Shown: piece by piece, positions 3,359 through 42,626 of the stretch
Layout: the number at the start of each line of letters is the position of its first letter
How positions within the stretch are numbered: position 1 is the first letter of the stretch
Virus record (IMG/VR): IMGVR_UViG_3300033402_000023
Span: 1-42,752 of that record
Origin: a virus
Lineage: Duplodnaviria > Caudoviricetes
Reading direction: 5' to 3' (one strand)
Length of the DNA: 42,752 nt
Notes under the pieces: model-generated
What the model was told of the DNA's origin: nothing
Databases searched by the model: none
The model's input: only the letters and a program-made list of their open reading frames with translations
Made by a program: the position numbers and the translations under genes

Positions 3359-3721
3359 TCAGCTCGTAGCCGCCAGCTTGGAAGTGACAGTCGAGCGGCT
3401 CAGCTCCGCGCGCCGTTGCGCGAGGCGTTCGATCTGCCGCGTCACGTCGATGTTATGGAGCCTGGAGACATGAATGATCGCGGTGAGCCGGGCAATTAAA
3501 TAGGGCTGCACGGTTAGTTCTCCCGCCATCCATGCAGCCCATGCGCGGGCAACCTGCGCGCAAAGTTCGGGCGGAACCTCGGACCAATGTTCATCGCACA
3601 TCATGCGGTAGCCGCGCGGAATGGAGCGTGAGCAGCCGTCGATATGGCAGAAGCTCATCGTGCCGTCTGATGTGGGACGTGCAATAGCGGAAATGTTTTT
3701 ATGGATGGAGCGCGCGAACAT
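3359..3721 (-). CDS. Hypothetical protein with Cys/His metal motif
   Basis: CHIDGC...MCDEHW; TGATG overlap. Confidence 0.75.
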   Translation of the reverse strand: MFARSIHKNISAIARPTSDGTMSFCHIDGCSRSIPRGYRMMCDEHWSEVPPELCAQVARAWAAWMAGELTVQPYLIARLTAIIHVSRLHNIDVTRQIERLAQRRAELSRSTVTSKLAATS

Positions 3722-4200
3722 CAGGCGACCTCCTGGGCGGCAGCGCCGATCTCCAGTTGCAATTGGCCGAGCAGCTCCAGCGTGGTGCGCGGGCCGTCCA
3801 CCGCCTTGAGCACTTCAATCTCCGCTCTCACCTGGTCGAGGACTTGCTTATGCAGGATGGAGTGATCTTCGGCGGTGAGCATGATGAAGTAGCCGCCGCC
3901 GCTCGACATCTTGCTGCTGCCGATAGGCACACGGAAGTTGATGCGCAGCGCGCGCACCGCCTCCTTAATCTCGCGGGCATCGAGTTCTTCGCAGCCTTTG
4001 AAGTTCCGCATATCCCTGATGGTGATGGCGCGGGCAGCGCCGCGGCAGAAGCGGATGGCGGAGAGCACCAGCCTTTCAGCGTGGCTAAGATGCAGGCCCA
4101 GCGGGCCTCCCGATTTTCCGATGAGCAGCGCGAGGATCTCCGCATCGATGCGCTGGATGCGCTCTTCGACGGGCTCGGGAAAAAGGGATAGTTCCGTCAT
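3721..4200 (-). CDS. Winged-helix DNA-binding protein
   Basis: ITIRDM...DAREIKEAVRALR...PIGSS...GGYF; ATGA overlap. Confidence 0.75.
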   Translation of the reverse strand: MTELSLFPEPVEERIQRIDAEILALLIGKSGGPLGLHLSHAERLVLSAIRFCRGAARAITIRDMRNFKGCEELDAREIKEAVRALRINFRVPIGSSKMSSGGGYFIMLTAEDHSILHKQVLDQVRAEIEVLKAVDGPRTTLELLGQLQLEIGAAAQEVA

Positions 4201-4433
4201 GCCAGGCTCTCCGTGGTAGTGAGCGAATCTTCGAGCAGGTGGCCGCATTCTTCGCAATAGATGCGCTTGATGTGAACGCGCTTGAGAACGGTCAATGACG
4301 CCGCGGAAATCGATTCATCGTCGTAGACCGCAATCCTGTCACCGGCATAGATCGACTGCCGGCATTCATTGCAAACGCGCGGATGGTCGGTAGTGATCCA
4401 GGTGACGCCGGGTTGGGATTTGAGACCCATCAT
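4197..4433 (-). CDS. Small zinc-finger protein
   Basis: CNEC...IYAGD...YCEEC; ATGA overlaps. Confidence 0.7.
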   Translation of the reverse strand: MMGLKSQPGVTWITTDHPRVCNECRQSIYAGDRIAVYDDESISAASLTVLKRVHIKRIYCEECGHLLEDSLTTTESLA

Positions 4434-4963
4434 GATATGAATCCTTCAATCGGAAAGCGATAGTTGGCGGTGAAGATCGAGGCTTTGTTCGTGAGGTCTA
4501 ACTTCTTCCACCAGTTATCGAGAACATCCTCGGTGATGTTGAGCGAGATCACGGTAGTGTGCGTCTGCGCGGTGGATGGAGCCAGGTTGTGTTTGCCGGC
4601 GCGGCGGATATAGCCGACGGTGACACCGGAGATGCCGTATTTCCTACCCAGCGCGCAATTGGAGATGTGTTCGTCCTCGGCGGCGATCTGCAGCCTGATC
4701 GATTCAGGGACAGGCTCGCCGCGTTTTCTTTTGTGCGATTCAGGCATGGATTCCTCCTCGATTGGTTCTATGCGAGTGACGGGTTGAGGTTGGTTTTCAG
4801 GCGATGGAAATTTATATTCCGCCGTAAAATGAATCGGCGCGTGAGTGCCGTCGTCGCAGGCCGCGCAGAGCGCCTCGCCGTCGAAGACGATCACGGCGTC
4901 GCAGCAGAGGCAGCGCGTGCAGCGCTTGCCGATCGGCGCGGAACTGGTGACGGCTGAATTCAT
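4430..4963 (-). CDS. Hypothetical protein, N-terminal zinc ribbon plus HTH
   Basis: CLCC...CAAC; SNCALGRKYGISGVTVGYIRR HTH. Confidence 0.7.
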   Translation of the reverse strand: MNSAVTSSAPIGKRCTRCLCCDAVIVFDGEALCAACDDGTHAPIHFTAEYKFPSPENQPQPVTRIEPIEEESMPESHKRKRGEPVPESIRLQIAAEDEHISNCALGRKYGISGVTVGYIRRAGKHNLAPSTAQTHTTVISLNITEDVLDNWWKKLDLTNKASIFTANYRFPIEGFIS

Positions 4964-5184
4964 TTGCGCGGCCTTTCCTTGAATTGCTTGAGGCATCGCG
5001 GGCAGAGATCGCGCAGAATCTTTGCGTGAGTTAGAACGCGGCCCCAGCCTGCCTCTTTCGCATCATGACGAAGTTCGGCGATAGTGATGATTGCGCCATC
5101 AACGGGCGCCGGACACACGCCGACGCATGGATAGCGGTTGCCGCAGTGATCGCATATGAGATTGATGAGCGTGCAAAAGCTCAC
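4960..5184 (-). CDS. Small zinc-finger protein
   Basis: CDHC...AKEAGW...DLCPRC; GTGA overlap. Confidence 0.7.
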   Translation of the reverse strand: MSFCTLINLICDHCGNRYPCVGVCPAPVDGAIITIAELRHDAKEAGWGRVLTHAKILRDLCPRCLKQFKERPRK

Positions 5185-5675
5185 TTCGCGCCGCCCTTCT
5201 TCGCCGCCTTCTCCTCGCGCGCGCGGAGATCGGCCAGCGGCTCAACCTTGAGCGATGGCGTCTTTTTGCGGGGCACGAAGCAGCGCGCGTAGAGTTCCTT
5301 GATGCGCCTCGCATACCTCTGGGGTAGATGAGTCTGGGGTAATATACGCTCGGCTCCTTTGAGCATGGTGTACTCGACGCGCCGCGAGAACATCAGCTTG
5401 AAGACGCGCGGCAGCTTGGCTTTGGAGAGCGCCAGCTCCAATGCGGTCACGTTGTCGTCGAGGATCTCGATGGCGGTGGTTGTGGTGACGGTTCCACACC
5501 ACTCCGCGCCTTCGAAGCGGCGCGAGGCCTCGGCATTGGTGGGCACGCGGCCATATGCTTCGACGGCGGTCATCACCAGAGCCTTGGCGTCATCAGCCTT
5601 CTCTTTGGCAATGTTTGCTGCGAGCTGCTTTTCTGCATAATCCGCGCAGAGCGAATCAAATTGTTGCGGTGTCAT
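5181..5675 (-). CDS. Hypothetical protein with N-terminal coiled coil
   Basis: GGAGG RBS; operon context. Confidence 0.8.
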   Translation of the reverse strand: MTPQQFDSLCADYAEKQLAANIAKEKADDAKALVMTAVEAYGRVPTNAEASRRFEGAEWCGTVTTTTAIEILDDNVTALELALSKAKLPRVFKLMFSRRVEYTMLKGAERILPQTHLPQRYARRIKELYARCFVPRKKTPSLKVEPLADLRAREEKAAKKGGAK

Positions 5676-5924
5676 TGGATTGGTCCTCCATGGTTAAAAA
5701 GCGTTTGCGCAAATCGTCGAGATAGCGCTGGTGATGTTTGAGCGAGCAGGTGTCGCCGCAGAGCTCCTCGTAAACAAAGAGCGAGTTGCGCGGCTCTTCG
5801 ACGGATTCGATGGGCTGATAAAGCACGCCCTCGAATGCCGGCCGCGTGATAGCCATCTGCCAATGATTGGTTTCGCGCTTGGGCGTGAGGCAGATCGCGC
5901 AGATATAGGGGGGGCTTCAGCCAT
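5656..5924 (-). pseudogene. Zinc-binding protein gene frameshifted at a C7 tract (5908-5914)
   Basis: Coupled start at 5924 (TGATG) reads MAEAPP; the -1 frame continues YICAICLTPKRETNHW...LCGDTC. Confidence 0.65.
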
Positions 5925-6211
5925 CAATGCACCAATCCTTCCCTGGCGCCGTCGCAACCGCGCACGCACATATCGATGGCGGCGTGCGCCGGCTCCATGT
6001 TGCGCAGGATGGCCTTGGCCACCGGCAGCGGAATGCCGCCGTAGATTTTGAGGCAATCGAGCGCCAGCTCCATATCGGCGCAGATGGCCTTCAGCGCGCT
6101 CTCGAACTCCGAGGGAAGCTGGCCGACGGCCTTGGTGCTGTAACATTGCATTTTGCCGTGCTGGTCGATAAAAGAAATCAGGTCGCCGTTTTTCGATTTC
6201 AGCGAGTCCAT
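5924..6211 (-). CDS. Hypothetical protein
   Basis: GGAGG RBS and TGATG overlap at 6211. Confidence 0.7.
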   Translation of the reverse strand: MDSLKSKNGDLISFIDQHGKMQCYSTKAVGQLPSEFESALKAICADMELALDCLKIYGGIPLPVAKAILRNMEPAHAAIDMCVRGCDGAREGLVH

Positions 6212-6306
6212 CAGAGGCCTCCAATCCAGCATTCACGGATAAAAATCGCGCCCATGAACGCAATGCCCAGCAACGATGGTGTGATGAGAATCCATAGTAG
6301 GCTCAT
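6211..6306 (-). CDS. 31-aa single-TM membrane peptide
   Basis: MSLLWILITPSLLGIAFMGAIFIRECWIGGL; GGAGG RBS; coupled at both ends. Confidence 0.65.
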   Translation of the reverse strand: MSLLWILITPSLLGIAFMGAIFIRECWIGGL

Positions 6307-6410
6307 CGATGGCCTCCTGAAAGCCTCAAGTACGCCTGCAGCACGCAGAGCAAGATCAGCGCGGCGTAGATCAAAAATGATACGCCAACAATGGTTGCTA
6401 TTGTTTTCAT
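6303..6410 (-). CDS. 35-aa single-TM membrane peptide
   Basis: MKTIATIVGVSFLIYAALILLCVLQAYLRLSGGHR (translated by hand); ATGA overlaps at both ends. Confidence 0.65.
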   Translation of the reverse strand: MKTIATIVGVSFLIYAALILLCVLQAYLRLSGGHR

Positions 6411-6667
6411 CGGATGCCTCCCAGCACACGCTCCACAGCGCCGCCCGGACGGAAGGCCCAGGCGAATTCAATGAGGAAATAAAGAGCCGCGCAGACCACG
6501 AACGCCTTGAAGCCGAGATCAAGCACGCGGCCGAGTTTTCGGTTGAACCGGGAGGCATCTGGATCGAGAGCCAGACGCTTACCGATCAAATGCTCAAGAT
6601 CGCAGAGCAAGATCAGCGCGGCGCAGATCAAAAACGAAACGCCAACAATGGTTGCTATTGTTTTCAT
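6407..6667 (-). CDS. Chimeric 2-TM membrane protein created by duplication plus captured segment
   Basis: N-terminus copies the 6303-6410 peptide, C-terminus copies the 6664-7128 protein, middle is the antisense of 13288-13356. Confidence 0.65.
   Translation of the reverse strand: MKTIATIVGVSFLICAALILLCDLEHLIGKRLALDPDASRFNRKLGRVLDLGFKAFVVCAALYFLIEFAWAFRPGGAVERVLGGIR
6542..6610 (+). repeat. 69-bp exact inverted copy of 13288-13356
   Basis: GTTGAACCGGGAGG...GATCGCAGAGCAA matches the reverse complement base for base. Confidence 0.97.
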
Positions 6668-7128
6668 CGGATGCCTCCCAGCACGCGCTCCACAGCGCCG
6701 CCCGGACGGAAGGCCCAGGCGATTTCGCCGAGGAGATAAAGAGCCGCGCAGATCACGAATGCCTTGATGCCGAGATCAAGCACGCGGGCGAGTTTTCGAA
6801 GGAAGGTTCTTCTCCAAAAATCGATGTACCATTTTTGGAGTAAATATTTGTAGTACCAGTGATCGCTCAATTGATTGCGGCTCGACTGAATGCGCTGCGT
6901 CAATTCGCCGCGCTCGGGAAAATCATGTTCGAGCAGGCGGCGCAGCGAGCTGGCCTCCTGCCTGCGATGCAACACCATCAATCGGTAGCTGAGGGGATAA
7001 TCCTGCTTCAGGATCTCCAGATCATCCGGATAACTGACAATGACCGGCTTAGCCGTTCCCGGAAAGAAGTTCTTCATGCCGCGTTGCGACTGATCGCTGA
7101 CAACTGAGAACTGAGAACTGTTTTTCAT
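6664..7128 (-). CDS. Hypothetical protein with C-terminal TM helix
   Basis: ATGA overlap with the MuB stop; hydrophobic C-terminus; a second possible start (MKNFF) follows a heptamer repeat. Confidence 0.7.
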   Translation of the reverse strand: MKNSSQFSVVSDQSQRGMKNFFPGTAKPVIVSYPDDLEILKQDYPLSYRLMVLHRRQEASSLRRLLEHDFPERGELTQRIQSSRNQLSDHWYYKYLLQKWYIDFWRRTFLRKLARVLDLGIKAFVICAALYLLGEIAWAFRPGGAVERVLGGIR

Positions 7129-8090
7129 GCCACTGCCTCGACTTTCTCGCTCGCGGCCAGTCCCTCGCGGAAGGCGCGCGCGCCGGCCATGATGCGGCCG
7201 ATGGAGATGTAGCGTTGTGTTTTGCGGTCCACGCTGACCACGATGGTCGAGCCCTCGATCAGCGCGCGGATCTCGGCGGCGTCGGGCTTGCATTCCTTCA
7301 GCTCGCTGCGCAGGATGCCCGCGGCCTCGTCGCTGGTCAAGGGCGGCAGAGTGACCTTGTCGGTGATGCGCCGCTCCAGTTGCTCCAGCGTGCCCACAAA
7401 GCGCGAGAAGATCTTGTCCAGCTCATGCGAGCCGAGGAATAAAAGCGAGAAGCGCGGCTCCTCATCGAGCAGCTCGCGAATGACTTCAAGGCAATCGACG
7501 CTCAAATGCTGCGCCTCGTCGAAGACGAGAACCACGCGGCAACCCTTGAAGTCGAAGCGCAGATTGTGGATGGCGCGGTCGATAGCCGTATCCGATTGCG
7601 TTCCGCAGGCGGTGGCCACGCGCTTCATCAAATCGCGCGGGCAGATGCGCGCGCGGCAGTAGATGCGGAAGATGAAGGTCTTCTGATCGGCCTTGCGGTC
7701 TTTGTTATGCTCGGCAATCAAGTGGCGCGTGATTTCCGTCTTGCCCGAGCCGGGGGGCGCATAGCCTAAATAAATCTGCGGGCGTTCGGCGAGCTTCAAG
7801 AAGATGCCGCGCATGAGCTTGACCGCGCCGGTTTCGTAGATCTGGCCGCAATAGGGCGCTTCCGGCTCGATGGGGTTGTGCTCGATGAAGTTGAGAATGG
7901 CGGCGGTGATGCGGCTCGTATTGGCGATGTTGGAATAATGGCCAGACATGAACTGCTGCAGCGTGTTGTGCGAGTAGCCGACGCGGCGCGCAAAATCCAC
8001 CGGCGACATGCCCGATTGAATCAGGTAGCCGGTGACGATGCGCTGCACGCGCTGCGCGGTTTCAAAATGAGCTTTCCGTTCTTCGGTCAT
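7125..8090 (-). CDS. muB: MuB-like transposition AAA+ ATPase
   Basis: N-terminal HTH; Walker A APPGSGKT; Walker B LVFDEAQHL; directly follows the transposase. Confidence 0.95.
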   Translation of the reverse strand: MTEERKAHFETAQRVQRIVTGYLIQSGMSPVDFARRVGYSHNTLQQFMSGHYSNIANTSRITAAILNFIEHNPIEPEAPYCGQIYETGAVKLMRGIFLKLAERPQIYLGYAPPGSGKTEITRHLIAEHNKDRKADQKTFIFRIYCRARICPRDLMKRVATACGTQSDTAIDRAIHNLRFDFKGCRVVLVFDEAQHLSVDCLEVIRELLDEEPRFSLLFLGSHELDKIFSRFVGTLEQLERRITDKVTLPPLTSDEAAGILRSELKECKPDAAEIRALIEGSTIVVSVDRKTQRYISIGRIMAGARAFREGLAASEKVEAVA

Positions 8091-9934
8091 GCGTTCCTTT
8101 TCTCCAAAATCTGGCGTGCCAATTCGGCCGGGGTCGCCGGCCGGGTCAATGTTTCGTGGTTGTGAGGGATGGTCTTGCGCTGGGTGATGATGTGGGAGAG
8201 ATCGGTGTCCGCGGGAAGCCGCAATCTTCCGGCCATGGATTCGAGCGGCGTCTGAGCGCCGTTATGCCGGGCGACGATTGCAAGATTATGGATCGCTTCG
8301 CGCGTCTGCTTTTCGAGATGGCGGCGCGTCGCCATGCTCTCGGCAATCTGCGATTGCGTCTCGGCGTCGTAGGGAGCAAAGCGGACTTTTTCTTCAGCCT
8401 GAAGCGCACAAAGGAAGTTGCCGTCTTCATCGAGCGCGGCGCACTCTTCGGGTAGGGCGGAATCGTAGGCTATGAGGATCTCCGTCTCGTTGAGGTTGTG
8501 CATCACCGCCCATCCGGCTTGATCGACGGGCTGATAGCGGCGCTTCGAGAGCGTGATGGCGCACTCGCGCACCCGGCGGCGCTCATGCTCGGCCAAAAGC
8601 AGCGCCAGCGTGGCGGGATCGGGCGCGGGCTTCTGGCGGGGATTGAGGTTGGCTTCGAAGACCTCGCGCGGCGTTCCGCCGTCCATGCCTTCGCCCGAGT
8701 GCGGCGTGTTGGCGTACTCATCGAGCCAGGCCAGGCAGGCCATGATGAAGAGGCTCGCCTTCGGGTGCTTCGATTCCGCCACGCGGCCGGCCTTGAGAAG
8801 GCGGCGATGGCGCATCATGGCCGCTTCGGTTTGTTCGGGCCGCGTGAAGGGATTGCCGCTGGTGTAGGTGGGCCAGCATTTGTCGAAGCGTTCATGCACG
8901 GTGCGGAAACTGCGCTCGACGTGCTTGGATTGCGGGTGGTGAGGAATGCAATGCGTAACGGCAATGCCCAGCCGCGCGAGGAAGCCGGTGGCGGCGATGC
9001 CTTCGAGTTCATCCTTCCACCAGGTGGGCGGCGCCAGAGGCGATTCGGCGAGATAACCAGGCAGCGCGCCGCGCGCGATCTTGCGATAGTCCTTGCCGTT
9101 ATCGACGTAGATGTGCTCAGGAGGGCCATATCTGGCGATGCCGCGGCGCATGGCGGCGGCAATGGCCCGCGAGCTGCCCTCCCAGCACCAGCTCGCGCCC
9201 ACGTACATCCTGGAGCGGTAATCGAGCATGGCGGAAAATCTGATGCGAATGGGAGCGCCCCACTCCACGTTGGAGAAGCAATCGTTGGCGCACTCCACAT
9301 CGTGGATCATGTGATCGCCCACCCAAACCTGATTCGAGTAGCAGTCGGTAAATCCGCGCGTGAGATAGGGCGACATGCGCTCGCGGTAGATCTTCGCGCC
9401 TTCACGGGCGTAGGTGACGAGCTGAGGCGGCATCATGGAGAGCCAGCGGCGCACTGTGTTGTAGCTGGGCAGATCGCCGGCTGGAATTTCAAGTAGGGCG
9501 GCGTCGCGCAGCAGAGCTTCATAGCAGACGGAGACGGATTGTTTCTGGTCGAGGTAGAGATACGCTGCCAGCCAGGCGGCCTTGGGATAGAGAGAAAAAA
9601 AGCGGGATGAATTTTTGTCGCTGCGCTTGCGGTCGGCCAATGCGGCGAGACCGTCTTTTTCATAGCGGCGCTTCCAGAGCCAGATCGTTGCTTCGCTCAC
9701 ATTCGATTGCGCCGCCACATAGGCTGCCATGCGGCTGAAGCTGGTCACTGGAGTTCCATCGGGAAGGCGGAGATTGCCGAAGCGTTCCGGTTCGCGCTGG
9801 AAGTCGAAGAGCATGCGGAGAATGGATAGCCGGAATTCGGCTTGCGCCTGGTCATCGGGATCGGGAAGGAGTACTCGCTGCGGAATGGAGACCGGTGTGG
9901 GGAGCGGAAGAGTCAACGCGAGCTGAGCGGCCAT
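8087..9934 (-). CDS. muA: MuA-like DDE transposase
   Basis: HTH domains; WVGDH, IYVDNGKDY and SKHVERSF catalytic motifs; YANTPHSG; Mu-type C-terminal barrel. Confidence 0.97.
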   Translation of the reverse strand: MAAQLALTLPLPTPVSIPQRVLLPDPDDQAQAEFRLSILRMLFDFQREPERFGNLRLPDGTPVTSFSRMAAYVAAQSNVSEATIWLWKRRYEKDGLAALADRKRSDKNSSRFFSLYPKAAWLAAYLYLDQKQSVSVCYEALLRDAALLEIPAGDLPSYNTVRRWLSMMPPQLVTYAREGAKIYRERMSPYLTRGFTDCYSNQVWVGDHMIHDVECANDCFSNVEWGAPIRIRFSAMLDYRSRMYVGASWCWEGSSRAIAAAMRRGIARYGPPEHIYVDNGKDYRKIARGALPGYLAESPLAPPTWWKDELEGIAATGFLARLGIAVTHCIPHHPQSKHVERSFRTVHERFDKCWPTYTSGNPFTRPEQTEAAMMRHRRLLKAGRVAESKHPKASLFIMACLAWLDEYANTPHSGEGMDGGTPREVFEANLNPRQKPAPDPATLALLLAEHERRRVRECAITLSKRRYQPVDQAGWAVMHNLNETEILIAYDSALPEECAALDEDGNFLCALQAEEKVRFAPYDAETQSQIAESMATRRHLEKQTREAIHNLAIVARHNGAQTPLESMAGRLRLPADTDLSHIITQRKTIPHNHETLTRPATPAELARQILEKRNA

Positions 9935-9943
9935 GATTTTCTT

Positions 9944-10156
9944 TCAACGTGCAATGATTTTGAGAATGCAATCGGGTATTTCAGGGACGGTGAGCTTCAT
10001 CATGAGGCGGCGCGTCAAGCCCCAATCGTTGTTGGTGAATTTGTCGAAGGGTTTTGCGCCGGTGGAGATCAGCGAATGCCTGTAGGTCCAGGCATGATCG
10101 CAGAGCACATAGAGCAGCTCTCGCTCCGCGGCGGTGAGAACGATATCGGCGGCCAT
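9944..10156 (-). CDS. Hypothetical protein
   Basis: GGAGG RBS; abuts the upstream stop. Confidence 0.65.
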   Translation of the reverse strand: MAADIVLTAAERELLYVLCDHAWTYRHSLISTGAKPFDKFTNNDWGLTRRLMMKLTVPEIPDCILKIIAR

Positions 10157-10417
10157 CTAGCGGCCTCCGTACTGCGCGGCGATCTCAGCATCGACGCGGG
10201 CCATCTCTTCACGAACTGCGCGAAGGACGCGAGGCGAATTCCTGCGCTGTCTGGCTACATTGCAGGCGGTTGTTTCTGAGCATCCTATTCTATCCGCGAC
10301 TTTTTTATAAACGCCATAATAGCGCCCATTCGGTTTGAATTGATTGAGTTCAAGAGCATCGAGAGGGATGGGAGGTGGAAGAGCAGCCTCTGCGCGCCAA
10401 TCTATGGAATGCTTCAT
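10157..10417 (-). CDS. Ner/Cro-like HTH protein, paralogue 2
   Basis: KKVADRIGCSETTACNVARQRRNSPRVLRAVREE aligns with the 11512-11721 product. Confidence 0.75.
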   Translation of the reverse strand: MKHSIDWRAEAALPPPIPLDALELNQFKPNGRYYGVYKKVADRIGCSETTACNVARQRRNSPRVLRAVREEMARVDAEIAAQYGGR

Positions 10418-10611
10418 GCTGCGCCTCCGGATGCAGGAAGTGGCTTCCAGAGATCAGGATGAGCTCTTAGCCATTTCTCTCCTCGCCAGCGGGGTTCCCA
10501 AATGTACCAAGGCTTTTTGCGTGTGCCAAATATAGGCTCACCATCACCATCCACAGGACAGCCATCTGAATCCATGACCAAGCATTTGACTAAAATCTTT
10601 TTCAGCTTCAT
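10414..10611 (-). CDS. Hypothetical protein
   Basis: ATGA overlaps at both ends; lower GC. Confidence 0.65.
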   Translation of the reverse strand: MKLKKILVKCLVMDSDGCPVDGDGEPIFGTRKKPWYIWEPRWRGEKWLRAHPDLWKPLPASGGAA

Positions 10612-11246
10612 GCTGCGCCTTCGATCTCGGCGAGGGCTTCTTCGCGCGCCTTGTTCAGCTCGGACATGGCGTGATGGCTCCCGCCGCGATCCGGATGCAG
10701 ATCGAAAGCGAGTGCGCGAAAACTTGATTCGATGACTTCCTCAGTGGCATCGTGTCTTACGCGAAGCACCTCCCACCAGGCGCGGCCGGTTTTGGCGGGC
10801 AGCGCGGCGAAGCCGCGGAAGGTACGTTCCTGCACTTGCGCGCCTCCATGGCGCTCGATGGCGCGCATGGCGTCGAGGGTGGCGGCGACGGCGGCCAGGT
10901 TGTCGGCCACCGATCGGTAAATGTCGATGGCCATGCACTGCATCTGGGCGTTTTGATTTTTGCGCCAGTAGACGGCCACGCCGGGATCGGAGGGCTCGCG
11001 TTGATCGCTGCGCGGCAGGCCGTCGAGGCGCGTTTGCACGTTGGTGCTGATGAGCACATCGTCGCGGCTGATCTTCATCGAGGCGAGTTGCGCAAGGATG
11101 CGGTTGATTCCGCCCATGATCGAGATGCTGTTCCCATAGGTTTTGAAGTTGCCGCGCTTGCGAAATTCAGGATCAACGCGCGCCCATCCCTCCGGCCAGG
11201 AGAGCGGGTAATTGGTGAGTGAGAAGCGGCGGTTTTTGGTTTTCAT
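10608..11246 (-). CDS. J-domain (DnaJ-like) protein
   Basis: C-terminal WWEVL...FRALAFDLHPDRGG...LNKAREEA with HPD motif; YPLSWPEGW N-terminus. Confidence 0.92.
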   Translation of the reverse strand: MKTKNRRFSLTNYPLSWPEGWARVDPEFRKRGNFKTYGNSISIMGGINRILAQLASMKISRDDVLISTNVQTRLDGLPRSDQREPSDPGVAVYWRKNQNAQMQCMAIDIYRSVADNLAAVAATLDAMRAIERHGGAQVQERTFRGFAALPAKTGRAWWEVLRVRHDATEEVIESSFRALAFDLHPDRGGSHHAMSELNKAREEALAEIEGAA

Positions 11247-11515
11247 GCGGAGGCCTCCAGCGTTATAGAGTTGCCGTTGAGCCATTTTTCAAGTTGCGCC
11301 GCAATCCTGGCACCGTGCTCGTCGATATATGCCAGCGCTTTTTCTTCGCTATCGAAATTGCAACAAAAATACTCAGGGTCATCGACTTCCCAAAAATCGT
11401 GACGCTTATAAGGAATTACATTAATTGGAACTATTCTCTTTATCGAGGAGGGATTCCAAAGGCATCGAAATGCCAGACCGAGGGCGGCGAAGGAAAGACT
11501 GAATCGTTTTTTCAT
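11243..11515 (-). CDS. Hypothetical protein
   Basis: ATGA overlaps at both ends; lower GC. Confidence 0.65.
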   Translation of the reverse strand: MKKRFSLSFAALGLAFRCLWNPSSIKRIVPINVIPYKRHDFWEVDDPEYFCCNFDSEEKALAYIDEHGARIAAQLEKWLNGNSITLEASA

Positions 11516-11721
11516 GCCGCACGCCTTTCTGTCTTCCTGGCATAACGCTGAATCTCGCGTTCAATGCGGGCATATTCCTTTACGAGGGCGGCTTCTACCC
11601 GGCGAGAGCGCCGATGACCATTGGCCACCAGACAGAGATGGGAGCGGCTGAGGCCGAGTTGTTTAGCCACGCGGCTAAGGATATTGCGGGATAATTTGGT
11701 GCGATAAGTGTTGGCGTTCAT
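11512..11721 (-). CDS. Ner/Cro-like HTH regulator, first gene of the early operon
   Basis: SRVAKQLGLSRSHLCLVANGHRRSRRV; divergent from the repressor. Confidence 0.85.
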   Translation of the reverse strand: MNANTYRTKLSRNILSRVAKQLGLSRSHLCLVANGHRRSRRVEAALVKEYARIEREIQRYARKTERRAA

Positions 11722-11770
11722 ATATCCTGACCAAAGGCGCGAAAGAAACACCGTTTGCCTCTGAATCACT

Positions 11771-11799
11771 ATAGTCAGCCTGCTGACAATTTTTGTCAA
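11771..11799 (-). promoter_or_regulatory. Early promoter overlapping operator palindrome TGACAA-N3-TTGTCA (11784-11798)
   Basis: Minus-strand TTGACA, 17 nt, GACTAT; second palindrome GTCAGC-CT-GCTGAC at 11774-11787. Confidence 0.65.
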
Positions 11800-11808
11800 G
11801 GAAAAAGT

Positions 11809-12318
11809 GTGGATGCTGACAAAATTATTCCGTATGGCTCGATTGCACATGCAATCGTTTCATTAAGGAAATCTCGCGGAATAACGCAAGGCACACTATC
11901 TAAAGAGCTTGGTATAAAACGGAACAGGCTAGCGCAATGGGAGCGTGATACCTATAAGCCTCCACCTAAAATACTTCTCATGCTTGCTGAAATGGTTCCG
12001 GAGTCTGAAAGGCAATGGTGGAGAGATAAGGCATCGGAGCGCGCAGACATTAATCTGGATGAAACGGAAGCGATCTCGACGCCACTATTCCAACGGGTAA
12101 AGAAAGCCACGGACGAAGGATTGATGGCACAGGCGGTTGTCGCGGTTGAGGCCAGAATCCTTCAGAGAGGTCTAGGCATGACGCTGATGCAGAAAGCGCA
12201 GGTCTATTGTAGGGTCTATGATGATTGGCAAGGATTTGCCGAGCGCACCGATGCCACTGTAGATCGCCGCATCGATGAAGTCGTTTGTCCAATAAATACG
12301 AAAGGGCGCAAAAAATGA
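11809..12318 (+). CDS. XRE-family HTH phage repressor
   Basis: LRKSRGITQGTLSKELGIKRNRLAQWE...P; AAGGA RBS before GTG; divergent from the ner-like gene. Confidence 0.9.
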   Translation: MDADKIIPYGSIAHAIVSLRKSRGITQGTLSKELGIKRNRLAQWERDTYKPPPKILLMLAEMVPESERQWWRDKASERADINLDETEAISTPLFQRVKKATDEGLMAQAVVAVEARILQRGLGMTLMQKAQVYCRVYDDWQGFAERTDATVDRRIDEVVCPINTKGRKK

Positions 12319-12872
12319 AAACGATCAGCAGTCTGCTTATGATTTCCGTCTTGTGTTGCCTTCAATTGACAGCCCAGACATCGAAGCCGCGCCCGCGGCC
12401 GCTGGCACCGACTTCCTTCCTTGGTATTCAATTTGGGAAGCCCATCAGTGATTCCGTGCGCAAATGTGACAGATATGAGGCTTCTGTAGATACCTGCTTT
12501 GAACCGATAAGTGACTTTTATAAAGTTCGTAATATAGAACTCTTTAGCAATATATTTGTAAACGAGATCGATGGAAAAGTTGGAAATATCGACGCAGAAT
12601 TCAATGTAGATAATGCCGATCAGATATTGCGCGCGCTAAGGGAAAAATACGGGCCACCCGCTCTTGATACAATCACGCACCTCCAAAATTCCATGGGCGC
12701 GCAAATCAGAGGGCGCAAAATATATTGGCATTGGGCGCATATAAGCATCGTCTTCAAATCACCGGACTCGATGATTGATGAAGGCACTCTTTCTGCATAT
12801 ACCATGGAATATATAGCAGCGATTGAACGAGATCAGAAAAAAGAAAAGGACGCTTTGAAAGGCGTACTCTAA
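12315..12872 (+). CDS. Secreted/periplasmic protein co-transcribed with the repressor (lysogenic conversion or exclusion candidate)
   Basis: Signal peptide MKTISSLLMISVLCCLQLTA; ATGA overlap; low GC. Confidence 0.8.
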   Translation: MKTISSLLMISVLCCLQLTAQTSKPRPRPLAPTSFLGIQFGKPISDSVRKCDRYEASVDTCFEPISDFYKVRNIELFSNIFVNEIDGKVGNIDAEFNVDNADQILRALREKYGPPALDTITHLQNSMGAQIRGRKIYWHWAHISIVFKSPDSMIDEGTLSAYTMEYIAAIERDQKKEKDALKGVL

Positions 12873-12897
12873 TCCCTAATCCCTAGTCCCTATTCTC
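12870..12897 (+). repeat. Heptamer tandem repeat (TAATCCC type)
   Basis: TAATCCC TAATCCC TAGTCCC TATTCTC. Confidence 0.8.
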
Positions 12898-12914
12898 TCG
12901 TTTCACACCCGCGC

Positions 12915-12982
12915 CCTTCCAACCTTTCCCTTCTCTTCATGCGCTCCACCGCGCGGCGCGCTTCCGCCCTATTCTGCTCACA
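12915..12982 (+). promoter_or_regulatory. Putative activator-dependent late promoter (lysis operon)
   Basis: 25-nt motif, 30 nt, then TATTCT; same spacing as 21327-21387. Confidence 0.6.
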
Positions 12983-13115
12983 GACCTGAACGGTAGGCAA
13001 TCCGCGAATCACTCTGAAAGGAGGTCGCGGAGTAGCCAGAGCAGAGAGACAGCGGTCAGCAGACAGCGATCAGCCGAAGGCATCTGACAACTGAAAACTG
13101 ACCACTGTCGCTAGA
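12982..13115 (+). ncRNA. Structured late-leader RNA candidate
   Basis: TCCGCGA/TCGCGGA stem with CTCT-GAAA-GGAG tip; long heptamer-repeat hairpin at 13048-13109. Confidence 0.45.
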
Positions 13116-13179
13116 GGCGAGGGAAACGGAATGTCAAAGACAGTGGCGGATTATTTCAGTTCACCGGCGTCCCAGAAAG

Positions 13180-13446
13180 TCATTCGAGAAGCGCTTTCTC
13201 GCTCAAGGCCGGTCCCTCGATGGGCACGAATGCGAAGCGCAGTTCGTGGTATGGGAAGAAAAATCCGAGCGAGTTTGGCGCGGATCTTTGCTCTGCGATC
13301 TTGAGCATTTGATCGGTAAGCGTCTGGCTCTCGATCCAGATGCCTCCCGGTTCAACGCCCAACAGTTTGACTTCTTGGGGGCTGTTGGGATCAATGGCTG
13401 GAATCACGACGGTGATGTTGGTTCCAATGTAATCGAAAAGCTCCAT
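13180..13446 (-). CDS. Small protein with possible Sm/Hfq-like fold, antisense to the late operon
   Basis: YIGTNITVVI...VKLLGVEPGGIWIE...FFFPYHELRF beta-strand pattern; GAAAGG RBS; AT-rich upstream region. Confidence 0.75.
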   Translation of the reverse strand: MELFDYIGTNITVVIPAIDPNSPQEVKLLGVEPGGIWIESQTLTDQMLKIAEQRSAPNSLGFFFPYHELRFAFVPIEGPALSEKALLE

Positions 13447-13498
13447 TGGCGTACCTTTCACGTTCGTTTATAGTATGCCACCGGATGAGGGAAAAGCG

Positions 13499-13963
13499 AT
13501 GAACCTGAGCGCGGCGGGAATGGAGCTGTTAAAGAGAAGCGAGGGCTTCCGCGCGTCCGTCTATCTCGACGCGGCCGGGCTGCCCACCATCGGCTACGGC
13601 CACAAGCTTTTGAATTCGCAATCCTTTCCCGAGGGCATCGACGAGGCGCAGGCGGCGGAGATCCTTGTCTCCGACGTGCGCGAGGCCGAACATGCGGTGG
13701 AACGGCTGGTGAAGGTTCACCTCTTTCAAGGCCAGTTCGACGCGCTGGTGGACTTCACTTTCAACCTCGGGGCGGGTCGCCTTGCAAATTCAACTCTGCT
13801 CAAGCTGCTCAACAAAGGCCGCTACGATGACGCCTGCGAGCAGATCTTGCACTGGGATCATGCCGGCGGCAAGGAACTCGCTGGATTGAAGGCGCGGCGC
13901 GAGGCGGAAGCAGCGTTGTGGAAGCAGGGCAGTTCTCAGCCGTCAGTTCTCAGTTCTCAATAA
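13499..13963 (+). CDS. Endolysin, GH24 phage lysozyme
   Basis: EG...YLDAAGLPTIGYGH catalytic E-D-T; QFDALVDFTFNLG; GLKARREAE. Confidence 0.97.
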   Translation: MNLSAAGMELLKRSEGFRASVYLDAAGLPTIGYGHKLLNSQSFPEGIDEAQAAEILVSDVREAEHAVERLVKVHLFQGQFDALVDFTFNLGAGRLANSTLLKLLNKGRYDDACEQILHWDHAGGKELAGLKARREAEAALWKQGSSQPSVLSSQ

Positions 13964-13998
13964 AAAACAAATGCCGCATCCGCGGCGGAGGGAAAAAC

Positions 13999-14835
13999 GT
14001 GAACATCTTTTCGAACATCTTGAATTCGCCGAAGACATCGATTGCGGGGCTGCTGATCGGCGCGGTCACCATCGGCGGCGTGCTCTCGCAGCAAGGCATC
14101 ACCCTGGGCAATATCGGCAATGGAACCGTGGTCACTCTGATCTGTGCGCTGGCGACAGCGCTGCTCGGCTTGCTGGCGCGTGATCCGGCGCCTTCGACAT
14201 CGAGCTCCACAACGAGCACCACCACCAAGCTGGGCTGCTGGGCATTGATCGCTCTTTTGGTGCAGTTACCATTTGTGCAAGGCTGCTCGGCGAAGAGCGT
14301 GGCCCAGGATATTGTGAACTGGACTCCGGCGCTGCAATCGGCGGTGGCCACCATCGATTCAGGCGCGGCATTGCTCGACCCGGCGGCCGCGCCGATCTTC
14401 GCCGCGGCCACGGCGGGCTTCGATGCGGCCTCGAATGTTCTGGTCGCCCAGGCCAGAGCTTACCTTGCGAATCCCAATGCGACTGTGCTTGCGCAATTGC
14501 AAACTGCGGTGGTGACCCTACAGCAGCAGGTGAATACGGCGCTCTTGCAGGCGGCAAAGATTACCAATCCGGCGAGTCAGCAGCATGCGCTCAATCTCAT
14601 CAATGCCGTGGCTACGGTAGTGGATGCGATTCTGGCGCTGGTGGTCTCGATCAGCTCCAAGGCGGCGATTGCGCGGATGGATTCTCGAATTAGCATCCAG
14701 CTAGCCGACGTCGCTCCGCTGATGAAGGATAGGCAGGCCGATGAGATCATCGCGCGGCATTACAAGGTTCCTGTCATGACCGGCGATTATTTTCGCTCGG
14801 TCAACCGGGAGATTCTCGTACAGAACGGGTTTTAA
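13999..14835 (+). CDS. Holin-like N-terminus fused to a lipobox-bearing helical domain
   Basis: Two TM helices after SPKTSIAG, Ser/Thr linker, third hydrophobic helix ending VQGC; GGAGG RBS before GTG. Confidence 0.7.
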   Translation: MNIFSNILNSPKTSIAGLLIGAVTIGGVLSQQGITLGNIGNGTVVTLICALATALLGLLARDPAPSTSSSTTSTTTKLGCWALIALLVQLPFVQGCSAKSVAQDIVNWTPALQSAVATIDSGAALLDPAAAPIFAAATAGFDAASNVLVAQARAYLANPNATVLAQLQTAVVTLQQQVNTALLQAAKITNPASQQHALNLINAVATVVDAILALVVSISSKAAIARMDSRISIQLADVAPLMKDRQADEIIARHYKVPVMTGDYFRSVNREILVQNGF

Positions 14836-14962
14836 GGGATGACCCCCCCAATGCGAAGTCTCCAGGAGTTCGAGGTCCGTACCTGGAGTCACAACTTGCA
14901 ACCATAAACCCGGAGGCGGCCGATCGAACCAGGTTGGCCGCCGCCGGCAAAATGAGGAAGCC

Positions 14963-15238
14963 ATGGCAAGCTGCCAGCCGGTCAAATTCGCCAACGTCTC
15001 GCGGTTGAAATATCAGGCGATCCGGGCGCGCATCCGCGCTCAGGCTTCCAGCCTGACCATCGATGGCGACAGCGGCACGGCGAGCGGCTCGACGCCTCTG
15101 GGCAAGGTTGCCTTCAGTTGGAGCTATGACGAGGCCGGCCAAACCTTGACTGTGCAATGCACGAGCAAGCCGATGCTCGTCTCGGAGGCTACGGTCGCGG
15201 CCAAGCTGCGCGATCTGATGGAGTCGGTGACGACATGA
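14963..15238 (+). CDS. Hypothetical protein
   Basis: GAGG RBS; late operon orientation. Confidence 0.75.
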   Translation: MASCQPVKFANVSRLKYQAIRARIRAQASSLTIDGDSGTASGSTPLGKVAFSWSYDEAGQTLTVQCTSKPMLVSEATVAAKLRDLMESVTT

Positions 15239-15342
15239 GAAGGCGGTTTTGGGGTTGGATTTTGCTGGGAGCGGGCTTTGCCCTGACGGTTTGGGTGACG
15301 AGCTGCGGAGGCGATTTGGCCTGGGCGCTGACGAGGCGGTAA
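15235..15342 (+). CDS. 35-aa lipoprotein-like peptide
   Basis: MRRRFWGWILLGAGFALTVWVTSC lipobox-like; ATGA overlap. Confidence 0.45.
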   Translation: MRRRFWGWILLGAGFALTVWVTSCGGDLAWALTRR

Positions 15343-15539
15343 AAGCCGGGAAAAGCCGGTAAAAGGTAAAACCGCCGCGGGAGGCTCCAGGAGGCGATTT
15401 AAGGCATGCGGGCGAATTTCTGGCGGTTGGCTACGAAATATTCAAATGAACGGCCCGACGCGGACAGCAAATGGCGGCGATAAGGCGAAAATCGAGCCGG
15501 TCTAACAAAAATGCCGGTTTTTGGTTTGAAGGGGGTTTT

Positions 15540-15830
15540 ATGCGGAAGTTATGGGGCAGGTTTCTGGATTGGCTGGCGGAGTTCTGGGCGGGGGATGGCC
15601 CCGTCGAAATGATTCCGTCGAGGGTGCCACCACCTGAGGTGAAGCGACGGCTCAAACTCAGGACGAAAAAGTCGGCAATAAAGACAGTAAAGGCCGCGGC
15701 CAACATCCATGCTGTTGATTCAGGGTATATACGGCAGTTCGTCGGAGGAAACAAGCGTCGAAACGCCAAGACCAAAAAGTCAGCGGCCAAGAAGGCGGTC
15801 AAAAAGCCAGTCCGGAGCGGTAGCCGATGA
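15540..15830 (+). CDS. Basic Lys-rich hypothetical protein
   Basis: GAAGGGGG RBS; KKSAAKKAVKK tail; ATGA overlap with the next gene. Confidence 0.55.
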   Translation: MRKLWGRFLDWLAEFWAGDGPVEMIPSRVPPPEVKRRLKLRTKKSAIKTVKAAANIHAVDSGYIRQFVGGNKRRNAKTKKSAAKKAVKKPVRSGSR

Positions 15831-16378
15831 CCGGACTGGGCCTAAGTACATCATCATCGCCGAAGGTTGGCCTGGGCATCGATCTGCGCGCCGGCTGGCT
15901 GAAGCACGTCGGTCTGGCGATCAGCGGCGCCAGCGGCGCGGCCATCGTGGTTGGGGCCTACGACATCCTGCGCTCGCAGCCCGATCGCGCCTTCGCGCTG
16001 CTGCAGGGCTGGGGGCCGGCCTTCCTGATTGCCATACTCGCGATCTTTGCCGTGGGGCGGATCTTCGAGGGCCTGAACTCGACGGTGCGGGAGAGCTTCA
16101 GCACTATGTCAGCAGGGATTCAATCGAGCGCGGAGGCCGCCTCCAGGACGGCGAGCGCTCTAACGCAACTGGCGGAGCAGGGCAACCGCCAGGTGGAAGA
16201 GACGCGGCGGCTGGCCATCTATGCAGCGCAGGAATTTGTGCCCATGTACGAGCGGCTGGACCGGCAGGATGAGCTTTTGCGGGAGATCAGCCAGAGCGTG
16301 AAGGGCCTGCATTGCGTAATTCATCGTGAAACAAAAACTGTCGAATGTGAGGAGATGGGGGCGAGCAATGGAAGCTGA
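15827..16378 (+). CDS. Membrane protein with C-terminal coiled coil (Mu gp25-like position)
   Basis: Two hydrophobic helices followed by a heptad-rich helix. Confidence 0.75.
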   Translation: MTGLGLSTSSSPKVGLGIDLRAGWLKHVGLAISGASGAAIVVGAYDILRSQPDRAFALLQGWGPAFLIAILAIFAVGRIFEGLNSTVRESFSTMSAGIQSSAEAASRTASALTQLAEQGNRQVEETRRLAIYAAQEFVPMYERLDRQDELLREISQSVKGLHCVIHRETKTVECEEMGASNGS

Positions 16379-16709
16379 TATCAGGGTGGCTCAGAACAGG
16401 CGGCGGAATGTCTTCATCCTGAAGCAAATTCGCATCGGGCACGAAAACCAGATGCACCGGCTCAACGACAGCGAGCTGCACGCCATCATGCAGGACAGCG
16501 GGCTGCATGTGAGCCTCTTCCAGGTGCGCACCATGCTGCAAGATCTCAAGCTTCCCAGGCCTGATTTGAATATGCAAGGCTACGTCGAGTTCAAAGAGGA
16601 GTTCAGCGAAGAAGAGGGTTGCGTTGTCATCAGCGAGATCATTCTCACGGCATCCGGTCTGCGCTGTCTTCAGCGGCGCAAAAACAATGACGACTTGCTC
16701 TTCAACTGA
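16368..16709 (+). CDS. Mu gp26-like winged-helix protein
   Basis: RRNVFIL...VRTMLQDL...GYV...LTASG; upstream of the small terminase. Confidence 0.65.
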   Translation: MEADIRVAQNRRRNVFILKQIRIGHENQMHRLNDSELHAIMQDSGLHVSLFQVRTMLQDLKLPRPDLNMQGYVEFKEEFSEEEGCVVISEIILTASGLRCLQRRKNNDDLLFN

Positions 16710-16910
16710 GTTTGCGTGGCACACGATTGGAAGGACAGTCGGACGCCAAACACATAGTCCAGCATTCGAGTGCAATGGCGGTGCACAGGGTAGCCTGCTC
16801 GGACATTGAGATGAGCCTGGAACTATAGCTGGAATCGAGCCCAGCCCACGCACGCGAAGGAAGTTTGAGGGTTTTACAACGTTATTGCACTATTACGCTC
16901 GAAAGGCAAA

Positions 16911-17633
16911 ATGACCAAGCCCAGGCCCAAAACCGGAGAGCGACGCGCGGTGAATCAGCCGCTCAAGATCGATCGCTTGCCGCAATCGGCGCGCGACGCG
17001 ATCAAGGTGCTCTACGATCAGGGGCGCACCTGGAAAGAGATTGAAGAGCAATCGGCGCTGGGCTTCGGCCCAGATTGGTCAAAGCCTCCTTATGATCAAG
17101 GCTTCATCGATTGGACGACGATCGATTCAGAGACGCTCGATCTCTTCCCCGGCCTACGCGTGGCGAAAAATACCTTACATCGCTGGTTCGATCTGCGCGT
17201 GCGCCAGGTGCGCGCCCAGGTTTTGGCGGAGAGCGCGAAGGCGCGCAAGTGGGCCGAGGCCTTCGCCGGCAAGGATCTGCCGGGCACCAACGCCGCAGTG
17301 ATGAACGCCATGCGCGACCAGGTCTTCACGCTGATGCGCCAGGTGGGACCCGGCGACCAGGCTAAGTTTCTCGATGGCCTGAATGCGCTCTCGTTGACCC
17401 TTGCGCGTTTGCAGCGCGTGGAGCTGCAGGCGAAACGAGTCGAAGTAGACAGCCGAAAATTAAAGCTCCTGGAGGAACGCGAGGAGCAACAGCGCCAGCA
17501 GCTTGAGGCGGAGACGGAGGGCGCGGCCAGGAAGCTCTCCAAAGGCGAGCTGACCGTGGAAGATATCAATCGCCTGCGCGAGCGCGTCTTCGGCTTGCCT
17601 CCGGTCGAGGCTCCGGAGGCCGCGCGTGGCTGA
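16911..17633 (+). CDS. terS: Small terminase subunit, Mu gp27-like (DUF3486)
   Basis: KIDRLP...TWKEI...KNTLHRW; directly before the large terminase. Confidence 0.85.
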   Translation: MTKPRPKTGERRAVNQPLKIDRLPQSARDAIKVLYDQGRTWKEIEEQSALGFGPDWSKPPYDQGFIDWTTIDSETLDLFPGLRVAKNTLHRWFDLRVRQVRAQVLAESAKARKWAEAFAGKDLPGTNAAVMNAMRDQVFTLMRQVGPGDQAKFLDGLNALSLTLARLQRVELQAKRVEVDSRKLKLLEEREEQQRQQLEAETEGAARKLSKGELTVEDINRLRERVFGLPPVEAPEAARG

Positions 17634-23886: not shown

Positions 23887-23977
23887 CTTTTCCCGCCTGG
23901 CGCGCGGCTGAGATTCCGCGCGCCGGGCGGCGCAACGCAACACGAATTCACCCGCGCGAGCGGAGGAGGATCTTTCA

Positions 23978-25069: not shown

Positions 25070-25100
25070 CAAGGGCCGGCTTTCCGGCAATGATGAGATC

Positions 25101-25130
25101 GAGGGCGCGCTTCTTCGGAGGCGCGCCTTC
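25101..25130 (+). other. C(UUCG)G hairpin 3' of the capsid gene
   Basis: GGCGCGCTTC-TTCG-GAGGCGCGCC; no U-tract. Confidence 0.6.
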
Positions 25131-25161
25131 GGCGAACAGAGTTCCATCAAGGAGATTTTCC

Positions 25162-25341
25162 ATGGCAGACGCCACGACCAAAACAACCGCCAAAACCTCA
25201 GCCTACAAAGTGCTCACCAACCTGATGCACAATGGCGGAGGCCGAACCGGCAAGCTCTATCGCAAAGGCGATACCGTGCAGCTCACCGAAGCCACCGCAG
25301 CGCCGCTGCTCAAGAGCGGAGCCATCGAGCCCATCAAGTAA
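25162..25341 (+). CDS. Small head-associated protein (Mu gp35-like position)
   Basis: AAGGAG RBS; YRKGDTVQLTEATAAPLLKSGAI. Confidence 0.75.
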   Translation: MADATTKTTAKTSAYKVLTNLMHNGGGRTGKLYRKGDTVQLTEATAAPLLKSGAIEPIK

Positions 25342-25353
25342 CTCCGGAGCGCC

Positions 25354-28381: not shown

Positions 28382-28504
28382 CGTTGTATCCGCGCCAATC
28401 CTGCGGCGCGGCGGAAGTCCGGCAGGCCTGCGCGGGGCTTCAAGAAAGACCGGGTCCTTCACCTGGATTGATTCACAAATCCCATCTCAAAGAAGGAAGG
28501 ACCT

Positions 28505-42553: not shown

Positions 42554-42626
42554 ATTCTCCAAATTAAATTACAGTATACTGTAACGCAATTTGGAGATTC
42601 ACTGTAACGCAATTTGGCGAGCCACA
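42554..42626. repeat. Right end transposase-binding sites R3 (inverted), R2, R1
   Basis: R3 at 42554-42576 sits head-to-head with two tandem ACTGTAACGCAATTTGG copies; Mu R3 is also inverted relative to R1/R2. Confidence 0.9.

Follow-up and report, generated by a model that had tools for sequence, protein, structure and literature searches.

Duplications of the FoSTeS/MMBIR type and the tandem inversion duplications of enteric bacteria carry a short inverted insertion at the joint, templated from a source a few kb off, with microhomology at a junction. Temperate phages also possess operon-embedded antisense regulators, of which the c4 RNA of P1/P7 and the CI RNA of P4 are examples. The DicF sRNA of the dicBF operon of the Qin prophage is a further one. 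For mycobacteriophage Island3, Pope et al. 2011 (PMC3029335) describe gene 68 as an insertion: the ORF has 85 codons, its final 18 duplicate the end of the gene upstream, and it is read as the footprint of a recombination event close to a gene boundary. Among the transposable phages, the Burkholderia phage KS10 is described (PMC2628397) with an early/transposase block that is inverted relative to Mu, and with lysis genes placed between the integration and head genes. The locus described here lies in the early operon of a transposable phage, and it combines a direct repeat across a gene boundary with an exact inverted copy of a piece of another gene of the same genome.

Phage genome and architecture of the cassette

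The window (the whole stretch of DNA analysed, 42,752 bp) is a metagenome-assembled IMG/VR virus record. It is a transposable, Mu-like (MuA/MuB) phage, as a MuA-type DDE transposase gene is followed by a MuB-type AAA+ ATPase gene, with an HTH repressor-like gene divergent from them. The early operon that holds MuA and MuB is on the minus strand, and the plus strand also carries portal, protease and tail genes. The main landmarks are as follows.

8087-9934, minus strand: MuA-type DDE transposase (rve, HTH_Tnp_Mu_2, Mu-transpos_C; phrog_310 at 3.7e-81)
7125-8090, minus strand: MuB-type transposition ATPase (AAA_22; phrog_296 at 8.5e-25)
11755-12318, plus strand: HTH repressor-like gene (HTH_3), divergent from the early operon
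13475-13963, plus strand: phage lysozyme, with which the recognisable genes of the plus-strand late block begin; it stands back to back with the donor gene

The deposited phage collection (50,697 records) gave no DNA match to positions 5500-8200 of the window. Homologues of the accessory gene that acts as donor below are found almost all in Acidobacteriota/Terriglobia MAGs, which suggests Acidobacteriota as the likely host phylum. The source setting is peat soil metagenomes.

A repeat search of positions 5500-14500 and of the whole window returned a direct pair of 198 nt at 93% identity, R1 at 6344-6541 and R2 at 6601-6798, with 257 nt from start to start, and an inverted pair of 69 nt at 100% identity, 6542-6610 and 13288-13356. 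A script counted 13 mismatches over the 198 bases of R1 and R2 and found the inverted pair to be an exact reverse complement (69/69). Both structures had been claimed by an earlier, sequence-only reading of this DNA, namely two 198-bp direct repeats with 13 mismatches around a spacer and a 69/69 inverted copy of 13288-13356 at 6542-6610, and both are borne out by the repeat search and the script. The runners-up in the whole window are a 47-nt repeat (74% identity) and a 27-nt repeat (89%); since the cassette repeats are by far the longest of the window, chance is excluded for them. The direct copies stand head to tail, as in a tandem duplication, and the filler between them is a templated one, with an exact copy nearby and a donor that can be distinguished from the recipient. 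The parts of the cassette and the small genes around it are listed below.

6664-7128, minus strand: geneX, which follows MuB directly and encodes a small membrane protein of 154 aa; its conserved C-terminal module consists of a TM helix and an AW/AFxPGGAVERVLGG tail
6601-6798, minus strand: R2, the C-terminal 45 codons of full-length geneX together with codons 1-22 of the peptide gene, the latter serving as the N-terminus of the chimeric ORF
6542-6610, minus strand: inverted insert, a 69/69 copy of 13288-13356, read as 23 antisense-frame codons (LLCDLEHLIGKRLALDPDASRFN) within the chimeric ORF
6344-6541, minus strand: R1, the last 45 codons of a geneX allele (TM helix and conserved tail), then the ATGA overlap and codons 1-22 of the 35-aa gene
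6407-6667, minus strand: chimeric 86-aa ORF, to which the peptide gene contributes an N-terminal TM, the insert a 23-aa linker and geneX its complete C-terminal module
6303-6410, minus strand: 35-aa hydrophobic peptide gene, the intact copy, whose start overlaps the stop of the chimeric ORF
6211-6306, minus strand: ORF for a hydrophobic peptide of 31 aa, coupled to the 35-aa gene by an ATGA overlap

The repeat unit straddles a gene boundary, running from the end of geneX through the ATGA stop-start overlap into the start of the 35-aa peptide gene. Positions 6601-6610 (CGCAGAGCAA) are common to the inverted copy, where they are the last 10 nt, and to R2, where they are the first 10 nt. The unique filler is 59 nt long, plus these 10 nt of microhomology at the right (insert/R2) joint, and the left joint (R1/insert, 6541/6542) has 0 nt of microhomology. 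On the minus strand the order after MuB is geneX, the 86-aa ORF, the 35-aa gene and the 31-aa ORF, and every start overlaps the preceding stop (ATGA). As the chimeric ORF is in frame and has ATGA overlaps on both sides, translational coupling would be kept through it.

The cassette was also looked for in other assemblies. A second IMG/VR record (19.7 kb) is 100% identical to the window over 3536-16446, cassette included, and holds the left-joint 30-mer. The protein of the 86-aa ORF that spans the insert (P0005) is recorded on 6 contigs, the longest of 543,577 bp, and the intact target protein (P0020) on 7 contigs. Among the Logan 31-mer contigs of the peat runs X1-X5, each run holds, with 0 differences, a 136-nt piece (6436-6571) that spans the left joint and an 88-nt piece (6581-6668) that spans the right joint. 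The left-joint piece consists of R1-specific bases followed by the insert, and the right-joint piece of the insert followed by R2-specific bases. In a sixth run, X6, the joint pieces were absent among the matches listed. The runs X1-X5 are listed under five peat studies, which may belong to one campaign, and the run that covers the locus best may be the very sample from which the window came; also, 31-mer contigs cannot connect both joints through the 69-mer, and the order of the parts rests on the longer assemblies. With the joints present in the contigs of five runs and in the second IMG/VR record, misassembly, which had been named as a risk from the start, is set aside. The word depth of the joint pieces in the Logan contigs is 0.6-1.0 of that of the flanks. 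From this some genomes might be without the cassette, although contig depth is too weak to carry such a claim.

Donor gene, geneX family and related phages

The inverted insert leads to a small gene located between the early operon and the lysozyme gene.

13180-13446, minus strand: donor (target) gene; its 88-aa product is an accessory protein belonging to an Acidobacteriota family for which an Sm/Hfq-like fold is predicted
13288-13356, minus strand: donor segment, codons 31-53, beginning exactly at a codon boundary and encoding VEPGGIWIESQTLTDQMLKIAEQ, which contains the invariant core of the family

A word-indexed search over 5.8 billion proteins found 12 homologues of the donor protein, confirming that 13180-13446 is a real minus-strand gene; one homologue (P0007), recorded on contigs of up to 46 kb, is 90% identical to the target. 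A related contig differs from the window at the positions that correspond to 13316 and 13318. In the 13-sequence alignment, the residues G30, V31, E32, G34, G35, W37, E39 and S40 are invariant, and the copied 69 nt encode this invariant core (GVEPGGIWIESQ). As the 23 copied codons are the core of the donor family, the alignment shows that copying must have run from the donor gene to the early operon and not in the reverse direction. The genome scan placed the donor family in 12 Acidobacteriota-type chromosomal loci without phage genes, and gene neighbourhoods were not conserved over the 9 MAG loci compared. No match to the donor protein was found in Pfam, PHROGs, PADLOC or NCBIfam, and with the Pfam threshold relaxed to E <= 5 none of the 13 family members (0/13) matched any family. 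The predicted fold consists of an N-terminal helix and a bent five-stranded sheet that can be superposed on Sm-fold chains. At the level of sequence, membership of the Sm family (Sm1/Sm2 motifs; Pfam LSM or Hfq) was found in 0/13 members at E <= 5, a search of the PDB sequences with the donor-family profile gave chance rows only, and the ESM Atlas returned only unnamed clusters. The target had earlier been proposed to be a toxin, a defence gene or an exclusion factor. This proposal finds no support in the four databases; the target belongs instead to a family carried on Acidobacteriota chromosomes, whose predicted fold is Sm/Hfq-like.

The C-terminal module of geneX, a TM helix with a AFLPGGAVERVLGG-type tail, was found in 96 clusters by a profile search of 1.84 billion representatives. 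Many members of this family are merely 48-60 aa long, which is the module alone, and by this measure R1 carries a complete module. An N-terminal TM helix like that of the chimera was seen in 0/23 of the geneX-family members inspected, and protein searches with geneX and with the chimera returned no second chimera.

The two related phages with DNA available were compared with the window. The first, L010, has about 70% DNA identity to the window phage, with MuB 64% and portal 74% identical, and in the second, L026, MuA is 65% and MuB 54% identical; gene order is shared with the window phage in both. In both relatives (2/2) MuB is followed by a single geneX and then by other genes, with no direct or inverted repeats and no insert. 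The unduplicated arrangement is what the relatives keep, and the cassette is the derived state. The suggestion of a cassette whose spacer varies between relatives finds no support in this small sample, given the single, insert-free geneX of L010 and L026 and the lack of any other chimera in the protein searches, and with the cassette absent from 2/2 relatives no co-variation of the insert with the target was seen. The accessory gene of L010 is a decayed remnant matching residues 48-80; as it survives only in this form, it is dispensable in the L010 lineage. Viral contigs were searched by way of geneX, alignment A3, the target and MuB, and they gave only the same phage, the two cassette-less relatives and L011, which is an unrelated record with a partial target match only. 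The metagenome scan for relatives returned the window's own contig only, the genome scan returned only chromosomal homologues without phage genes, and a donor of the R1 allele or a pre-duplication parent was found in no collection searched.

Origin of the cassette and competing explanations

The reading that we favour, with a probability of roughly 0.58, is that the cassette is a recent scar of illegitimate recombination or template switching, that is, a 257-bp tandem duplication across a gene boundary with a 69-nt filler placed backwards, which is tolerated and whose antisense match is probably a by-product. On this view a break or stalled replication, located where the repeat unit ends, would have left an end that acquired a short filler templated by the opposite strand at a distance of 6.7 kb. 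The end of this filler may then have re-annealed by way of CGCAGAGCAA to the start of the repeat unit on a second phage copy, about 93% identical to the first, so that R1 and R2 would be two alleles and not an old duplicate pair. Such a variant could survive because the operon and its coupling are unbroken and R1 still encodes the complete membrane module of geneX.

The sequence-only reading had argued that the repeats diverged while the insert did not. At the uniform rate of 13/198, the finding of 0/69 in the insert has P = 0.009 (Fisher 0.024). But 9 of the 13 R1/R2 mismatches lie within 66 nt that code for the variable TM stretch of the geneX family (binomial P = 0.009), where one codon differs at all three bases (ATT/GGC, I/G), and the mismatch rate outside this cluster is 4/122, for which the probability of 0 in 69 rises to 0.10. 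R1 and R2 share the conserved 18-aa tail without any difference. Within the geneX part 6 residues change, each time from one hydrophobic residue to another, and at 5/6 of the differing residues the R1 state and the R2 state each recur in other members of the family. As the mismatches are clustered and follow constraint, the argument from the unchanged insert is weakened. The pattern fits what would be expected of two functional alleles of about 93% identity and not of a dead duplicate that drifts. The simplest reading would be a recent join, with R1 and R2 derived from two slightly different phage copies. The caveat attached to the original argument, that the copies may come from different parental phages and that the capture may be recent and neutral, is the reading these data support best.

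Several observations go against the scar. Taken as it stands, the contrast of 0/69 with 13/198 (P = 0.009) would be in line with an insert held constant by selection or gene conversion. One of the two joints is without microhomology, and, with no R1-allele donor or pre-duplication parent found, the two-allele origin is drawn from the pattern alone. Also, the full conserved module in the chimeric ORF fits a selected protein equally well. Direct repeats of 198 bp should delete easily. Yet the structure of the cassette is identical across runs filed in 2019 and 2020, and it follows that the cassette is at least stably tolerated.

One unlikely alternative is that the duplication was kept because the 86-aa chimera is useful as a new protein, a two-helix membrane protein that would be a second, differently anchored copy of geneX. 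The chimera has two hydrophobic segments, its ORF is in frame, with ATGA coupling to either neighbour, the whole conserved module lies within R1 while relatives of 48-60 aa consist of the module only, and the tail is the same in R1 and R2 with changes that are compatible with a TM helix. Such a pattern would also be expected if R1 came recently from a functional allele. The linker, moreover, is an antisense reading of another gene, and none of the 23 family members inspected has an N-terminal TM helix like that of the chimera. The open frame by itself is unremarkable. The insert is codon-aligned with its source gene, and the codon-aligned antisense frame was stop-free in 77% of 5,410 sampled 69-mers from the genes of this phage, so that, with one landing in three falling into the right frame, about 1/4 of such events are expected to be open and coupled by chance (1/3 x 0.77). 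Events that leave an open, coupled ORF are also those least likely to be lost.

Of the same low probability is a selected antisense element, whereby the early mRNA would form a duplex with the target mRNA, RNase III would cut it and the Sm-like gene would be turned off upon induction. The strands were read correctly at the outset. The donor gene and the early operon are both on the minus strand and the copy between them is inverted, and by this geometry alone 69 nt of the early mRNA would be complementary to the mRNA of the target; if the two mRNAs paired, they could give a 69-bp duplex, for which we computed -146 kcal/mol. Such complementarity is, however, automatic for any inverted filler between co-oriented genes. 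The pairing covers target codons 31-53, which is mid-CDS and away from the start region, and not the ribosome-binding or leader region. In a consensus scan for promoters and terminators, the target gene showed no promoter-like site and nothing else of use. Both predicted folds of the early RNA, MFE and centroid, pair GAUGCCUCCC of the insert with the ribosome-binding stretch (GGGAGGCAUC) of the chimeric ORF; the folding energy of the cassette region, however, is unremarkable (z = -1.78). No discrete RNA structure was apparent, and a search of Rfam over 5800-13700 at E <= 1 gave no match except a chance snoRNA row. The runs listed as holders of the sequence include none of RNA. The lack of differences in the insert (0/69) against 13/198 in the flanking repeats would speak for selection on the antisense match, but this argument falls to P = 0.10 once the variable TM cluster is left out. 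L010, the sole relative with a visible homologous locus, has a decayed target remnant and no cassette, as the antisense explanation would have it, though this is a single case of co-occurrence, and the cassette is absent from both relatives (2/2). A shade less probable again is the version in which template switching itself built a self-targeting antisense patch, such that induction would destroy the phage's own Sm/Hfq-like accessory mRNA through the long duplex. If true, an antisense patch would be a one-step route by which a phage acquires trans-antisense control over its own cargo genes.

Much less probable than these is a role as recombination substrate, in which the 69-bp inverted copies let host recombination flip a 6.7-kb block and so change the genes behind the early promoter. 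The perfect inverted copies do bracket exactly this transposase/repressor block, with geneX, MuB, MuA, the early promoter, the repressor and a lipoprotein gene between them, and the 31-mer contigs cannot distinguish the two isomers. Yet all the longer recorded assemblies are of the window's isomer (the chimeric ORF on 6 contigs, the target on 7, and two IMG/VR records), both ORFs would be broken by the inversion, and no invertase was found among the genes scanned. The least probable explanation of all is an assembly artefact in which two strain alleles and a chimeric read were placed in tandem, for while the window is a metagenome-assembled virus record and the R1/R2 differences resemble strain variants, allele-specific joint pieces are present in five runs whose contigs were built per run by a different method, their word depth is 0.6-1.0 of the flanks, the second record is identical and the spanning ORF is on 6 contigs.

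Three known classes of element were tried and rejected. CRISPR-like arrays have non-coding repeats of about 23-50 nt, several spacers, a leader and cas genes; here the repeats are 198 nt of coding sequence over a gene boundary, there is one insert, and no cas-like match was found among the proteins scanned. In diversity-generating retroelements the mismatches are confined to the adenines of one copy and a reverse transcriptase is nearby. In the cassette the mismatches are T/C, T/A, A/G, A/T, A/C, C/T and C/G in both directions, and there was no reverse transcriptase among the genes scanned. A known RNA family was rejected, as no Rfam family matched.

Significance and comparison with known systems

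The cassette is a clean natural example of the remodelling of a phage operon, with a joint that has not yet been smoothed out: the duplicated overlap of 198 nt, the filler of 59 + 10 nt and the donor can each still be recognised. The rearrangement yields a new in-frame ORF for a small membrane protein. It also indicates that repair can, as a side effect, leave a perfect antisense copy of another gene in a phage genome, and this bears on the scoring of antisense matches in genome scans. If the antisense match or the chimeric protein is functional, this would be the birth of a gene or a regulator from a single rearrangement. As side results, the analysis brought out two unannotated families of small proteins in Acidobacteriota and their phages, one with the predicted Sm/Hfq-like fold and the other being the membrane module with the AFLPGGAVERVLGG tail (96 clusters).

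With the c4, CI and DicF RNAs the cassette shares a stretch of a polycistronic phage transcript that is complementary to another transcript and might act in trans. The three are processed and structured small RNAs, which pair over short imperfect stretches at ribosome-binding or leader sites and are conserved among relatives, whereas the cassette has a perfect 69-nt mid-CDS match inside an ORF, no detectable RNA structure, and is absent from relatives. In its overall layout, with a minus-strand early operon and plus-strand lysozyme and head genes, the window is like the KS10/BcepMu type (PMC2628397); it differs in the likely host phylum, which is Acidobacteriota as judged from the relatives of the accessory gene.

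The nearest published parallel found is that of Island3 genes 67 and 68 (PMC3029335). The likeness lies in a small ORF that was inserted into an operon, is absent from the sister phage, and ends in codons that duplicate, at the DNA level, the C-terminal codons of the gene upstream. The cassette differs from the case described there in that its repeat is longer (198 nt against about 50) and also covers the start of the next gene, and in that its joint adds a templated inverted filler from another gene of its own genome. From the template-switch class of duplications it differs in having microhomology at 1/2 junctions only, and in that its copies differ by 6.6%, so that two templates (two phage alleles) must be assumed, with the mechanism deduced from the product only. 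The kind of rearrangement is one that is already known, to which this cassette adds a further case.

Repeat links between the MuB/geneX and accessory-gene loci

MuB and the accessory gene (13180-13446, minus strand) resemble each other at their 3′ ends: positions 7142-7167 and 13194-13219, aligned in direct orientation, agree at 23 of 26 bases, and both stretches encode ...EG.A.SEK. A tract of the TCAGTTC heptanucleotide lies downstream of the matching end in each case. The shared ends and the tracts form a second link, older in appearance, joining the accessory-gene locus to that of MuB and geneX (6664-7128, minus strand; a small membrane protein gene directly after MuB). The heptad is present in 3-4 tandem copies at each of three sites in the window (5 matches observed against 0.02 expected):

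7097-7121, minus strand, TCAGTTC tract within codons 3-10 of geneX
13084-13101, minus strand, TCAGTTC tract about 80 nt past the stop codon of the accessory gene
13929-13960, plus strand, TCAGTTC tract at the end of the lysozyme gene and the start of the ORF at 13918-14835

The tracts could be a protein-binding iteron or could be prone to slippage. It may be noted that the Logan contigs of two peat metagenome runs (X3 and X4) contain a joint, at a word depth of 17-21, in which 13107 is linked backwards to 7089 through an intervening ACT; this may come from a rearranged variant or from a different element with tandem heptad tracts.

Relatives of geneX and of the accessory gene

The C-terminal module of geneX consists of a TM helix followed by a AFLPGGAVERVLGG-type tail. 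Its family, which includes proteins P0026-P0115, comprises 96 representative clusters of 37-160 aa with variable N-termini and is without a Pfam model; two further weak matches of 197 and 502 aa were found in the search. As for the accessory gene, a family member or remnant adjoins an IS1595-type (ISXO2-like) transposase gene in three loci, and no conserved neighbourhood was found for the family apart from this adjacency:

L013, 8776-9762, adjacency of transposase gene and family member or remnant
L014, 11621-12628, adjacency of transposase gene and family member or remnant
L027, 692-1594, adjacency of transposase gene and family member or remnant

In the related phage of locus L010, the accessory gene is reduced to a remnant of 56 codons (L028:1474-1644, minus strand), which matches residues ~48-76 of the accessory protein, has an altered end and is the immediate neighbour of that phage's lysozyme gene.

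Gene calls and record ends

In the regions 15500-19000, 23975-25700 and 28487-29242, calling genes as longest ORFs yields translations that are of low complexity and implausible; therefore, the true genes (e.g. terminase) probably lie in other frames or on the opposite strand. Towards the right end of the record, past the last tail-fibre-like gene, a 27-nt palindrome (89%) is located at 42556-42597. At the left, the computed end of the second, 19.7-kb IMG/VR record falls at about window position 24 if collinearity is assumed throughout, only a short way from where the window itself begins (1-24). Assembly breaks common to both records near this end would be as expected for a transposable phage, whose host flanks are variable.
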